A stretch of DNA of 64,000 nucleotides from an uncultured cyanobacterium (GCA_963744145.1 CAVUSO010000001.1:5792001-5856000), one strand, 5' to 3'; shown: positions 314 to 13,300, counted from the stretch's first letter. Numbers and translations are program-made. Notes: a model not told the origin generated them from the letters alone.

Positions 314-1811
314 TTATAGTCCGAACAAGGATAATCGCAGCCCTTATAATGATCCCTATAATGAGACGTTGAATTTTGATGCTTGGACTTATGGCGATAC
401 ACTCCCCGATTTCTGGCAAGGAACGCCCGATGCTCGCTGGTTCCGCGTAACTGGCCCAGATGGGAATAAATATTGGGTTCCTAGTGCTTATATTAATGGG
501 AATCCACCTGATTCTAGTCCTCTTCCAGGTGGTGGTTCTAGCAATAATAATAATTCGGGGAGTAGTAATAGCGGGTATAACAGGCAAGATGCTGTTGCTT
601 ACGCTCATGAATATGCTAACAGCCGCAATCCTCAATATTACGACTATTCAAACGAAGGTGGAAACTGCGCTAACTTTGTTTCTCAATGTTTAGTTAATGG
701 TGGACTTTTACCAGACAAGGCAGATAGCAACGGTAAAAATCCTTACGAATATATCAATGCTGATGGATTAACCAACTATTTGCTTAATAACGGTTTTGCG
801 ACAGAAGTTAGCTCTATTGATCAGTTAGAACCTGGGGATGTAATTGCCTATTCTTGGGATGGCGGTCCAGTCATGGATCACGTTGCTGTATATACTGGTA
901 ACGGCACTGTGGCTGGTAATACTACCGATGAAGATGGTTGGGATTGGAAACTAGGAGTAGGAAATTACTATCCTAATGGTACAATCAAACTGCTGCACAT
1001 AACTGGTGGAAATAGCGCGTCATTCGTTCCACCTGATTCTGTTACTATTAATGGCTATGATATCAGTGGTCCGTTTTACTCAGTCTTCAAACAGTATCAA
1101 AATTTACTTGGTAATCCTACTTCTTCAGTGATTGTTCAAGGAGATGGCACTAGCATACAATATTTCGATAATGGATACATTTTCTGGGATGGTCAGCAAG
1201 CTGTAGCTTACTACAGTGGAAATGGAATACCAGTTACACCACCTCCGGATAATCTACCTGATCCTTTCGATGGAAACTATGACAGAAATGCTGCGGTTGC
1301 TTATGCTCGAAAATATGCTGATTACCCTAATCCAGAATATCAGGATCAATACAATAATGGTGGTGATTGTACAAATTTCGTCTCTCAAGCTTTAATTGCA
1401 GGTGGAGCTTTATTTCTACCTGTAGTTCAAAACAATTTAATGACATTTTTGCATTTTGGTAAAACTACTTTAAAAAATGATTTTATCAATGCAGATAAAC
1501 TGCCACTATATCTTGAATCTCACGGAATGGCTATTATTAAGAGAGGCTTAAAAGGGCTATCAGTTGAAGAGAAGCTTAGGGAAATTGAACAATTCATGAT
1601 ACCAGGAGATATTTTTGGTTATGACGAACATCCTGGTCAATATATAGATCACCTCAATTTTTATCTTGATTATGGAGCAGACGGTGTACCTAGAGTTGCT
1701 AATCATAGTGGTAATACAGATGAAGGTTATGAGGGCGATTCGATTAAAGATGTTAATTTGGATTCTCTTGAAATGCTAATCCATATCATTCGTCCAGATA
1801 ATAGACTTTAG
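314..1811 (+). pseudogene. 3' part of a secreted cell-wall hydrolase-like gene: SH3-like domain, amidase_6-like domain, LGFP-like repeat, second amidase_6-like domain; 5' end cut by the IS
   Basis: Two domains with Y(N/D)RxxAVAYA...GG(N/D)CxNFVSQxL and a downstream His (DHVAV, DHLNF). LGFP-like LGNPTS...QYFDNGYIFWDG. The ORF-track GTG at 288 lies inside the IS end. Confidence 0.75.
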
Positions 1812-1922
1812 AATCTATTTTAAAGTTAAAGGAAAGCCTATCTATCGTGGATAAATCTGGTTCTTTAGACTGTAAACTAGCACCTGACTAGAGAAAGCGA
1901 TCACTTTTTCACCATCGAAAGT

Positions 1923-1984
1923 GCGATCGCTAGTAGGTCTCCCAAGAAGAATCACCTTTACCTATTTATAGAAAAGCGATCGCC
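1923..1984 (+). repeat. ~62-bp HIP1-bounded repeat, copy 1 of 8 (others 2465-2526, 3292-3352, ~4615-4669, 13423-13484, 13664-13725, 15524-15585, 17737-17798)
   Basis: Consensus GCGATCGC-tagtaaatctcc(c/a)aagaagaatcacctttccctatttatagaaaa-GCGATCGC, aligned by eye. Copies 4 and 5 have one degenerate HIP1. Confidence 0.9.
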
Positions 1985-2138
1985 TCTATTTCCAATCTCT
2001 ATGTTTACTCTCAGAAGCGATCGCAATTATTAATTCATAAGCGAGGGTTGGAAATAGGAAGCGATCGCCATTGGTAAAATCCGATGAAAAGCAGTTGCTC
2101 AAGTCAAATATTTAATTCATCTTTTGTTGGATAAAATG

Positions 2139-10300: not shown

Positions 10301-10659
10301 GCACAATCCTACAATTACCATATAACAACAATATCCTACAATTACCAGGGATAGTAAAAGTTTCTTCTGGCTCTATTGATGATTTGTTGAAAGGAGCCCA
10401 GCGATTACCACTAAAGAGTGGAGTTGATCCAGTAATACAATACGAAAAGAATGGTGGATGGTCATTAATTTGGGAAGATTATCAAAACTTGACAGAAGGG
10501 TTAAACCCTATACAAAAAGAAACTAGGGATGGTCTTCTTTGGGTGACTAAGCTTCCTGATGGAAGTAAAGCTATCGGTCGAAACTTTAGTTCTGGAAACT
10601 TGCTTACTATTGAAATTCAGAATCCAGATAGTAACACAATTAGAGATCAGATATATTGA
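7381..10659 (+). CDS. Large secreted S8 subtilase with 7-bladed PLL-like lectin beta-propeller, LGFP-like repeats and a toxin-like domain; probably continuous with 10641-12052 across a frameshift
   Basis: Triad motifs DIDTG, HGT, GTS. Seven repeats like xNxDGRLExFxIxTDxxVxHxWQ...WSxW. LGNPIG / LGVPTS...[10 protein letters not shown] repeats. ATG 7381 preferred because the track's TTG at 7282 is the -35 box. Confidence 0.85.
9016..9610 (+). repeat. Near-identical 285-bp tandem duplication within the lectin propeller
   Basis: tggcaaacaactcctaatgg recurs at 9016, 9301 and 9586. Confidence 0.9.
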
Positions 10660-12052
10660 CCCTATGAGTCCAAGTTCTAAATTTCTTCCTAAAGACTTCC
10701 CTATTGGTGAAGACCCTAGTGTTAGCAGTGATGTCAACAGTCCAACTTCAACTGACATTAATAGTCCTGACTCCAAGATAGTTAGTCCAAGTGATAGTGG
10801 TAATTTTGATTCTGGAACAAGTAATTCAGGAGATAGCAATACGGCTTCAGATACTTCTAGCTCAAGTGATTCTAGTGCCAATGACTCTAGTGTTAGCAGT
10901 GATGTCAACAGTCCAACTTCAACTGACATTAATAGTCCTGACTCCGGGATAGTTAGTCCAAGTGATAGTGGTAATTTTGGTTCTGGAACAAGTAATTCAG
11001 GGGATAGCAATACTACTTCAGATACTTCTAGCTCAAGTGATTCTAGTGCCAATGACTCTAGTGTTAGCCGTGATGTCAACAGTCCAACTTCAACTGACAT
11101 TAATAGTCCTGACTCCGGGATAGTTAGTCCAAATGATAGTGGTAATTTTGGTTCTGGAACAAGTAATTCAGTGGATAGCAATACTGCTTCAGATACTAAT
11201 TTTCCCAGTGAAGGCGATTCTGCTAGTATTTCTTCAGATACTAATTCTTTGGGTGCTTCAACTTTGGGTGATGTTGCCAATACAGCTATGTCAGCAATTT
11301 TCATCGCTGATTCTTCCTTCAATCTTGCAAACGCATATCAACAAGATGGTGGACAATTTGGACAAAACTTTGATACAACAGCAGGCAGTGTAGCTGGTCA
11401 GGTTATCGGTGGGGATATTGGTGCAGAAGTAGGAGAGGCAATTGGTTTTACCATTGGGTCTTTTTTTGGTGGAGTAGGAGCAATTCCAGGGGCAGCTATT
11501 GGTAGTTTTGTTGGTGGTTTAATTGGTTCTAATGTTGGTTCTAATGTTGGTTCTAGCCTAGGTAGTGCCTATTATGGCGCAACTACTGGTGATAGTGGTA
11601 GTTATTCTTCTAATAATTATTCCGGTAGTAACTATAGTAGTAGCTATTCTAGTGGCGCAACTACTGGTGATAATGGTAGTTATTCTTCTAATAATTATTC
11701 TAGCAATAACTACAGCAGTAGCTATTCTAGTGGCGCAACTACTGGTGATAGTGGTAGTTATTCTTCTAATAATTATTCTAGCAATAACTACAGCAGTAGC
11801 TATTCTAGTGGCGCAATTACTGGTGATAATGGTAGTTATTCTTCTAATAATTATTCTAGCAATAACTACAGCAGTAGCTATTCTAGTGGCGCAACTACTG
11901 GTGATAGTGGTAGTTATTCTTCTAATAATTATTCTAGCAATAACTACAGCAGTAGCTATTCTAGTGGCGCAACTACTGGTGATAGTGGTAGTTATTCCTC
12001 TAATAATTATTCTAGCAATAACTACAGCAGTAGCTATTCTAGTGGTTATTAA
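10641..12052 (+). CDS. Ser/Asp-rich repeats, glycine zipper and Ser/Asn/Tyr/Gly repeat tail; likely the frameshifted C-terminus of the subtilase protein
   Basis: Overlapping +1 frame reads [11 protein letters not shown]. Contains ~3 x 171-bp repeats, a GxxxG-rich hydrophobic segment and 6 x 78-bp repeats. Confidence 0.7.
10718..11200 (+). repeat. ~2.8 copies of a 171-bp (57-aa) coding tandem repeat
   Basis: gttagc(a/c)gtgatgtcaacag at 10721, 10892 and 11063. Confidence 0.9.
11576..12043 (+). repeat. Six copies of a 78-bp (26-aa, [26 protein letters not shown]) coding tandem repeat
   Basis: Units start at 11576, 11654, 11732, 11810, 11888 and 11966. Confidence 0.95.
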
Positions 12053-12208
12053 CTATGACATAAATAAAAGCCAATTATATACTAAATAGTCTAATATAGT
12101 TGGCTTTAGATAATACCACTACACAGATGATATTTAGATTATATCTAGCCAGAATAAATTTGGAATTAGTTCAATAACTAAAAATAGCTAAAACTGAAGT
12201 TAAAAAGT

Positions 12209-13300
12209 ATGACTCAAAATACAGTTATTAATACCAATTCAAATATAGATAGTCAAATTGAATACATTCATTCTTCTAGTTTTCCAGAATTACTACAACA
12301 ACTAGGAATATCCTTATTAGTTTCTACTTATCAAGCTGGTAAATTAATGGCAATAAGAGCTAAAAATAACCGGTTAACAACTTTATTGCGTAACTTTCAG
12401 CAAGTAAAAGGAATCGCTTTGTCATCTCAGCAACTAGCTATAGGAGTTCTTAACAGTATTTGGTTTTTTCGTAACATTTCAGAAATAATTCCTCTATTAG
12501 AAACTCCTAACGATTATGATGCCTGCTTTATCCCATTATCTTCACAAACCACAGGAGATATTCAGGTTCACGAAATTGCCTGGGTAGAAGAAAAACTTTG
12601 GATAGTTAATACTCGTTTCTCCTGTTTATGTACCCTTGATCCATACTATAGTTTTGTTCCATGTTGGCAACCTTCTTTTATTACTGCTTTAAAAAATGAG
12701 GATCGTTGTCACTTAAATGGATTAGCACTGGTTGATGGTCAGATCAAATATGTTACAGCTTTAGGAGAAACTGATCATGCCCAAGGTTGGCGAGAAAATA
12801 AAGCAAAAGGAGGATGTCTAATCGAATTCCCTACCAGCGAAATAGTGGCACGCGGTTTATGTATGCCTCATTCTCCTCGCTTTTATGATGGGAAGTTGTG
12901 GCTACTGGATTCTGGTAATGGTCATCTATTAGTAGTAGATTTAGACAAAGGTAGTAGTACCGTCGTTGTTGAGTTACCTGGTTTTACCAGAGGTTTAGCT
13001 TTTCACGATCGCTATGCTTTCATCGGTTTATCTCAAATACGCGAGAAAAAAATCTTTAGTGGATTACCAATAGAGGAAAAATTTTCTAAATTACAATGTG
13101 GTGTTTGCATTATTGATATCAAAACAGGTAAACCTGTAGGTTCTCTGGAATTTCAATCTGGCTGTACAGAGTTGTTTGATGTGCAAGTGTTCCCAAATTT
13201 TCGTCAACCAACTATAATTGGTTTCCAGAAAGACACGATCAATAATATCTTCGTTACTAAGGGATTCACTGAATTACCTCAAAATATCCAAATTGAGTAA
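12209..13300 (+). CDS. TIGR03032 / DUF4915 family protein
   Basis: SLLVSTYQAGKL, TGDIQVHE, NTRFSCL, EDRCHLNGLA and GLCMPHSPR motifs. Confidence 0.85.
   Translation: MTQNTVINTNSNIDSQIEYIHSSSFPELLQQLGISLLVSTYQAGKLMAIRAKNNRLTTLLRNFQQVKGIALSSQQLAIGVLNSIWFFRNISEIIPLLETPNDYDACFIPLSSQTTGDIQVHEIAWVEEKLWIVNTRFSCLCTLDPYYSFVPCWQPSFITALKNEDRCHLNGLALVDGQIKYVTALGETDHAQGWRENKAKGGCLIEFPTSEIVARGLCMPHSPRFYDGKLWLLDSGNGHLLVVDLDKGSSTVVVELPGFTRGLAFHDRYAFIGLSQIREKKIFSGLPIEEKFSKLQCGVCIIDIKTGKPVGSLEFQSGCTELFDVQVFPNFRQPTIIGFQKDTINNIFVTKGFTELPQNIQIE

Follow-up and report, generated by a model that had tools for sequence, protein, structure and literature searches.

A 64,000-nt stretch of DNA from an uncultured cyanobacterium (GCA_963744145.1 CAVUSO010000001.1:5792001-5856000), here called the window, contains a large gene headed by a subtilase (S8) domain (carrier gene B), the 3' end of a second such gene (carrier gene A), and, between them, a gene for an M50 intramembrane metalloprotease. 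Our preferred reading, to which we give a probability of about 0.6, is that the locus holds members of an S8-headed family that have been duplicated in tandem and damaged, and that these carriers are likely to be leader-tagged antibacterial polyproteins, processed by an M50 protease with a RiPP recognition element (RRE), exported, self-cutting, and armed with lysins or toxins. The initial annotation had proposed a subtilase-headed system with swappable C-termini. Judged from sequence, a family of this kind with highly variable C-termini does exist across filamentous cyanobacteria, and its constant part is the S8 head, not the LGFP junction that had been taken to define it.

Of 7992 candidates from a search with the head region, 499 proteins reached E<=1e-30 (the top-ranking 120 were listed), and a profile scan of species genomes identified 289 relatives of the S8 carriers. 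Counts of loci given below rest on the best 80 of these 289, each locus spanning up to 10 kb on either side of the S8 domain; their titles include Microcoleus, Tychonema, Coleofasciculus, Nostoc, Okeania, Spirulina, and others. Carriers are 900 to 4000 residues long, with the S8 domain fused within the chain, and the strict Asp, His, and Ser triad motifs are present in 63, 78, and 79 of 81 carriers, respectively. The head ends in TPxER in 73 of the 82 open reading frames (ORFs) from the loci, and the sequences diverge beyond it. The family is patchily distributed, occurring in 16 of 61 related genomes; a family-wide search at E 1e-110, which was too strict, recovered 6 of 71.

Clustering of the last 130 residues sorted 178 carriers into 58 tail clusters; the set includes a few truncated products and some sequences that came from more than one source. 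The 65 carriers linked at S8 identities of at least 90% hold 32 of these clusters, a figure that is slightly high owing to the duplicates and truncated products, and just 48 of 465 carrier pairs with at least 95% S8 identity share the same tail. The last 220 residues could be scanned in 69 of the 80 loci (the exclusions were 5 open-ended tails, 5 with runs of N, and 1 broken). Thirty-eight of these tails are peptidoglycan hydrolases (23 M23, 4 CHAP, 2 pesticin, 2 GH19, 2 lysozyme, and one each of muramidase, Amidase_6, GH25, GH108, and Hydrolase_2); there are also 3 RNase toxins, 2 C39-like peptidases, 1 lipase, and 1 LGFP module, and 24 tails had no match at 1e-5. Other homologues terminate in Ntox44, Ntox50, or amphipathic helices. 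Known toxin families are a minority of tips, accounting for 3 of the 69 tails, with Ntox50, Ntox44, and EndoU found elsewhere. A small gene lies 24 bases behind a colicin E3-like tail and 2 bases behind a colicin E5-like tail, and two of the four nuclease-tailed carriers with context are followed by one (L066 and L075, but not L110 or L053); inspection of the fetched loci by eye found no convincing small gene behind hydrolase tails. The polymorphic toxin layout that had been proposed is supported for some recognized toxin tails with an adjacent small gene; toxin-immunity as the main mode is not supported, with 38 wall hydrolases to 3 known nucleases. In three loci (L072:13726-15771, L073, and L081) a similar unmatched tail is followed by a pentapeptide-repeat protein of 660 to 680 residues, possibly a cognate partner.

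The abundance of wall hydrolases among the tails, together with the dominance of wall-binding modules, would also fit carriers that are exported or periplasmic enzymes remodelling the producer's own wall or sheath, in filament breakage, hormogonia, or mat turnover, with the nuclease tails as occasional accidental fusions. Most tails have no immunity-like gene by eye, and the leader described below also heads an adhesin, as this explanation would allow. We nevertheless regard it as rather unlikely, given that 32 unrelated tails on near-identical heads are unlike housekeeping autolysins, that colicin E3/E5, Ntox44, Ntox50, and EndoU tails recur, and that the family is patchy and, here, disrupted.

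Carriers start with a basic stretch followed by an [F]ILExIxTPS motif, which in the window's genome is found in 2 of 4838 long ORFs, namely the two carriers. An M50 homologue is present in 45 of the 80 loci. Among 72 carriers with a full start (8 at contig edges were set aside), M50 lies near 43 of the 57 that bear the leader, compared with 1 of the 15 that do not. The leaderless exception, L132, shares a divergent M50 and a variant N-terminal motif with two other loci; the three are related and were counted as one observation. Across the 61 genomes, 13 contain both carrier and M50, 3 a carrier only, and 3 M50 only; M50 is present in 11 of the 12 leader-bearing genomes, one of which has 8 leader hits and a single M50, and the leader profile matches mostly long frames in M50-bearing genomes. 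Fisher p values for leader against M50 (2e-6 and 4e-8) ignore kinship and are not relied on. From these patterns of co-occurrence we take the M50 gene to be a true partner of the carriers. A likeness of the leader to LEPR-XLL was discarded, there being no match to an NCBIfam model of that kind. In L046-L047, L092, and L134, carrier and M50 are separated by a gene for a family 4 glycosyltransferase.

The M50 gene of the window matches the Peptidase_M50 domain model, and HExxH together with NxNP..DG occurs in 41 of 46 M50-matching ORFs. Against the daptide intramembrane protease model NF041824 the protein gave E 3e-40 (125-147 bits, cut-off 300). The model of its N-terminal domain (pLDDT 93.6) comprises three strands and three helices, and the best structural matches were RRE domains: lasso-peptide B1 (Z 10.8, root mean square deviation 1.9, 74 residues) and TbiB1 (Z 10.2), with a Foldseek E for the RRE match of only 3e-3. 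The predicted structure thus identifies an N-terminal RRE fold in the M50 protein. HlyD is found in 16 of the 80 loci, always with M50 and in one case as an M50-HlyD fusion. We tentatively extend the reading to an as yet undescribed export route in filamentous cyanobacteria, one that we hold somewhat less probable than its opposite, in which an RRE on a site-2 protease plus HlyD, in place of an ABC transporter, would read a short leader on giant proteins, with self-processing polymorphic lysins and nucleases as the main cargo and with leader and reader co-varying by lineage. Two giants without an S8 domain stand beside RRE-M50 and HlyD, in L204 (7521-13742, DUF4114 and calpain) and L211 (1139-8887, DUF4114 and Calx-beta); both are likely to be further cargo.

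Carriers could instead be polymorphic weapons exported in a conventional way, for instance through the ABC-type type I secretion system of the genome, with the RRE-M50 protein only trimming or regulating them or acting on an unseen short peptide. Leaderless carriers do occur in M50-less genomes, the window's clade has no dedicated HlyD, and RRE-M50 fusions are known from short-peptide pathways, as described in passages of PMC10036551. This explanation is unlikely, however, since M50 adjoins or is fused to HlyD in 16 of 80 loci, the leader profile falls mostly on long frames in M50-bearing genomes, and motif and RRE vary together in three loci.

In the window, genes A and B are, on the evidence of their modules and arrangement, tandem paralogues. 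Upstream of the window lie a second leader, a second S8 head (88% identical), a propeller, and another M50 copy. The leader, head, and propeller of gene A are situated 2-6 kb upstream and are cut by two multi-copy insertion sequences (IS), with 7 and 12 genome copies and target duplications of 7 and 6 bases. ORF 288-1811, which matched Amidase_6 twice and LGFP weakly in a domain-model scan, does not represent a distinct type of protein. Its GTG start falls inside the inverted repeat of an IS ending at 313; because this is where the second IS of gene A ends, the ORF is the tail of gene A, what is left of the 3' part of a second S8 gene that two IS have interrupted. The module order of gene A is S8, propeller, SH3-like, amidase, LGFP, amidase. 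Elsewhere in the genome, a stand-alone CHAP and SH3-like protein (L055:8627-9376) contains the SH3-like module of gene A.

That the two proteins have a junction in common was borne out: a 21-mer occurs exactly twice in the 64-kb window, at 1185 and 10108, against a chance expectation of ~5e-4 for such a pair by simple arithmetic. Ungapped identity around it is 67, 87, and 63% in three 30-base windows and 23-50% beyond, and blastn between the copies gave a single 82-base match with 77% identity, so that the similarity is confined to ~90 bases. The junction did not hold up as the defining swap site. LGFP similarity was detected in 10 of 80 loci and the strict junction motif in 5 of 82 locus ORFs; by its position in the module, the 21-base junction is the end of an LGFP module and not the swap point.

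Gene B (7282-10659; its homologues favour a start at 7378 over 7282) matched S8 and two LGFP modules in the domain-model scan, and its propeller is a PLL-type lectin (E 8e-105), a module found in 2 of 80 related loci. The initial annotation ended this protein in a toxin-like C-terminal tip. The domain in question (10339-10660) was found in one other of 401 genomes, 59% identical, where it lies inside a 2915-residue carrier that reads on into EndoU; this position argues, independently of the metagenome data described below, that the supposed tip of gene B is an internal domain as well. The end of gene B falls within ORF 10559-12052, which is in a different frame. One contig (depth 7) from a soil metagenome run, X1, has one base fewer at 10643 and thereby joins this ORF to the frame of gene B; the DNA at the break is single-copy in the genome, and X1, which has alleles of both paralogues, may be the source sample and is thus not independent. 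The gene B frame probably runs on past 10643, giving a product of ~1,560-1,590 residues ordered as S8, propeller, two LGFP modules, and the small alpha+beta domain, probably followed by Ser/Asp repeats, a glycine zipper, and Ser/Asn/Tyr repeats. We rejected ORF 10559-12052 as an immunity gene: it is repeat-rich, has the glycine zipper, and is probably in frame with the carrier. By eye, a glycine zipper like that of the gene B continuation is fused C-terminally to a domain of the type encoded at 15616 (see below) in P0130, P0136, and P0138.

We propose that the RRE would bind FILExIxTP and the M50 site would cut near TP|S, by analogy with daptides. The carrier would then cross the envelope by way of the linked HlyD adaptor where one is present, none being nearby in the window's clade. 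Outside, the S8 domain may cut at or after TPxERA and so release the modules, of which SH3, LysM, LGFP, or lectin modules would bind the surface of a neighbour while hydrolase tails lyse walls. Such tails would need no immunity gene once beyond the producer's outer membrane; the rarer nuclease tails would need uptake and may sometimes bring an immunity gene. Tails could be exchanged by recombination at common module ends such as the LGFP end.

Several observations weigh against this reading. The small domain of gene B matched no confirmed toxin family in protein, Atlas, or fold searches: a search of longer proteins (228 candidates) returned only itself, Atlas scores of 0.94-0.95 were to unnamed clusters and a 'CdiA (Fragment)' cluster with low recognition, and fold searches gave nothing clear for a model with pLDDT 66. 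Small RNase tips typically have a K-I/V-R-Y strand at the C-terminus. No immunity-like gene lies behind carrier B, nor behind the Ntox44-tailed L110 or the EndoU-tailed L053. Fifteen of the 72 full-start carriers have no canonical leader, and a tree-aware test of leader against M50 was powerless, 63 of 72 rows carrying both traits and a quick tree offering 1 usable pair on well-supported branches. About 20 loci form one tight clade in the S8 tree; the window's S8 groups in a clade of 22 loci, mostly Microcoleus, in which the M50 gene is divergent from the carrier. No HlyD was found near carriers of that clade or at this locus, and the likeness of the 12 HlyD_3 proteins in the window's genome to the linked type never goes beyond E 4e-5. 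Among the 45 M50 loci, the ABC ATPase motif pair (Walker A plus signature) was seen in only 1 and SecA, by motif search only, in none, so the loci offer no evident energy source for export. The same leader stands at the start of a Calx-beta adhesin that has no S8 domain and lies beside M50 and HlyD, and a calpain protein carries a variant of the motif; the export part is therefore not specific to weapons and is wider than the S8 family. Finally, gene A, gene B, and both M50 copies look broken in this assembly, one M50 copy being truncated and the other, in the window, having an in-frame stop at 6210-6212. An X1 contig lacks this stop, but its other differences are alleles of the upstream paralogue, which makes it ambiguous. 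The locus may be decaying here, or the breaks may be assembly errors.

A target other than competing kin, whether eukaryotic grazers and fungi or neighbours lysed for nutrients, would account for the general absence of immunity genes, including behind several nuclease tails, and for the PLL-type, ricin-type, and mannose-binding lectin, GH19, and lipase modules that occur, but it is very improbable, as peptidoglycan is the substrate of M23, CHAP, amidase, lysozyme, and pesticin, and colicin-type tails have adjacent small genes.

Read as antibacterial polyproteins, the carriers work like both a polymorphic toxin system and a daptide-type leader peptidase, yet belong to neither the S8-linked polymorphic toxin systems (S8-PTS) of Gram-positives nor the daptide pathway. 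S8-PTS likewise tie an S8 peptidase to polymorphic C-terminal toxins, with processing by S8 demonstrated for S8-Ntox35, in the passages concerned of PMC9424270 and PMC13556192. As described in the main text of PMC9424270, from which cyanobacteria are absent, S8 is there encoded by a single-domain gene of its own in an operon with the toxin, a signal peptide and BetaH are part of the toxins, and every toxin has an immunity gene, whereas in the carriers S8 is fused into the chain, the N-termini carry a basic stretch and RRE-type leader, and tails are mostly wall hydrolases. Polymorphic toxin systems at large (Zhang et al. 2012, PMC3482391, in the sections concerned) also have a constant N-terminus and an in-built peptidase, subtilisin being listed, and they have a pool of tips in common with the carriers (colicin E3/E5, Ntox44, Ntox50, EndoU) as well as free-standing cassettes that share tip domains; they differ in that immunity genes are exceptional in the carriers and several effector domains occur per chain. 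M50 is unmentioned in the first 300,000 of the 357,715 characters of that paper.

In daptides, according to the relevant passages of PMC10036551, a leader with the motif ELExMEAP is said to be removed by an RRE-fused site-2 protease; the other RRE of the pathway requires L(-7) and M(-4) in order to recognize the leader. MpaP/DapP, like the carrier-linked M50, fuses an RRE to an intramembrane site-2 protease, and L(-7), M(-4), and P(-1) of the daptide motif stand in the same register as the carrier ILExIxTP (L-x-x-hydrophobic-x-x-P). Daptide substrates, however, are short modified peptides with ABC transporters, compared with proteins of 900-4000 residues here, and no daptide modifying enzymes were seen among the annotated neighbours of carriers, only part of the neighbours being annotated. 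In loci combining M50, HlyD, and secondary SecA_DEAD, described outside cyanobacteria, M50 was proposed to act next to HlyD as a substitute for the ABC transporter (Kamneva et al. 2015, PMC4452313, in the passages on these loci); no SecA motif was found in the 45 carrier M50 loci, and those passages do not include the RRE, leader, or polymorphic cargo of the carrier loci. The closest solved relatives of the propeller are Photorhabdus PLL-family lectins (PDB 5c9o and relatives; E 8e-105), which are free-standing, whereas in carriers the propeller is one exchangeable module. In the literature searched, with supplements and most subscription journals outside its scope, we found no description of the S8-carrier family, so the architecture may have been listed before.

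Mat- and crust-forming cyanobacteria (Microcoleus, Coleofasciculus, Nostoc, Okeania, and others) shape their heterotrophic neighbours, and the literature searched described no protein weapon of the S8-carrier kind for them. The family is a candidate for such a weapon and a pool of tail domains without a family match (24 of 69). A ten-residue tag may direct the export of very large proteins, which would tie RiPP leader recognition to protein secretion; if so, cyanobacterial engineering could make use of the leader to mark proteins for export.

Domain models matched the previously assigned amidase, S8, LGFP, lectin propeller, M50, and DUF4915/TIGR03032 domains, the last in the 12209-13300 protein, while the PEP-CTERM match is just below the cut-off. 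Of the three accessories suggested alongside the carriers, M50 was retained; PEP-CTERM can be kept as a gene syntenic with M50 in the closest clade (8 of 80 loci). TIGR03032/DUF4915 was rejected, being found in 0 of 80 loci and having a paralogue beside an RTX/DUF4347 protein.

Table 1. Features of the carrier locus and its flanks, in window coordinates
Feature	Position	Strand	Remark
IS end (DUF4277-type transposase, 12 genome copies), inside carrier gene A	1..313	-	terminal inverted repeat ends at 313
Carrier gene A, 3' remnant: SH3-like, Amidase_6 (576-959), one LGFP module, second Amidase_6	314..1811	+	
Shared 21-mer, copy 1, LGFP-module end	1185..1205	+	
Two-gene cassette, 128 + 164 aa, resembling a toxin/immunity pair in layout only	3607..4496	+	
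PEP-CTERM-like protein	4877..5398	-	syntenic with M50 gene in closest clade
RRE-M50 intramembrane metalloprotease gene, HELGH motif, divergent from carrier	5484..6989	-	in-frame stop 6210-6212
Predicted RRE-fold domain of M50 protein, three strands + three helices	6330..6560	-	structure matches
Carrier gene B, first frame: leader, S8, lectin propeller, LGFP x2, small alpha+beta domain	7282..10659	+	
Leader motif of carrier B, FILExIxTPS type	7468..7497	+	
S8 subtilase domain, Asp/His/Ser triad motifs, TPxERA boundary at end	7849..8733	+	
PLL-type beta-propeller lectin	8764..9786	+	
Shared 21-mer, copy 2, LGFP-module end	10108..10128	+	
Small alpha+beta domain, unconfirmed candidate RNase-type toxin; frame break 10643	10339..10660	+	
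Probable further part of carrier B, with three 171-base Ser/Asp repeats, a glycine zipper (11417-11539), and 78-base Ser/Asn/Tyr repeats	10644..12052	+	
TIGR03032/DUF4915 protein, bystander	12209..13300	+	0/80 related loci
Two-gene cassette, 106 + 141 aa; first gene matches S8-carrier tips	15616..16382	+	

The two small gene pairs (3607-4496 and 15616-16382) had been taken for classical orphan tips with immunity genes. Each occurs behind a carrier in 2 of 80 loci, but both have their own start codons and are found mostly away from carriers, within a repeat-delimited cassette array that also contains toxin-antitoxin genes; they are a plausible reservoir of tips, not classical orphan tips. For the 3607 protein, the Atlas lead was DUF6883 at 0.88, which is below the reliable range. 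The 15616 protein matches the C-terminal tip of two S8 carriers, P0074 (81%) and P0129 (47%), and is followed by the 15957 gene wherever a flank existed. Among 401 genomes, 26 have it as a free-standing gene of 106 residues. A carrier is nearby in 4 of the 26 (two as remnants), in 1 of 20 fetched regions, and in 1 of 18 metagenome loci. In L053 (13880-14130), degenerate 15616 and 15957 remnants begin at the stop of the EndoU-tailed carrier, and look as if the carrier end had recombined into a cassette.

The array (1900-4800 and 13400-19700) comprises copies of a clan AA aspartic protease, PIN and RelE-type toxin-antitoxin genes, and the toxin/immunity-like pairs. Between its cassettes stand families of 50-130-base repeats that contain GCGATCGC, and joints linking copies of the repeats are seen in X1 contigs. 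Behind the second pair, an ArgS-like (DALR) gene (16432-17577) has an in-frame stop at 17083-17085; an intact version (393 aa) immediately follows the carrier in L053 and, in several loci, comes after the 15616-15957 pair. An unannotated protein of 155 residues is encoded at 22886-23350; L041 (two copies) and L049 have homologues of it in the neighbourhood of carriers or M50.

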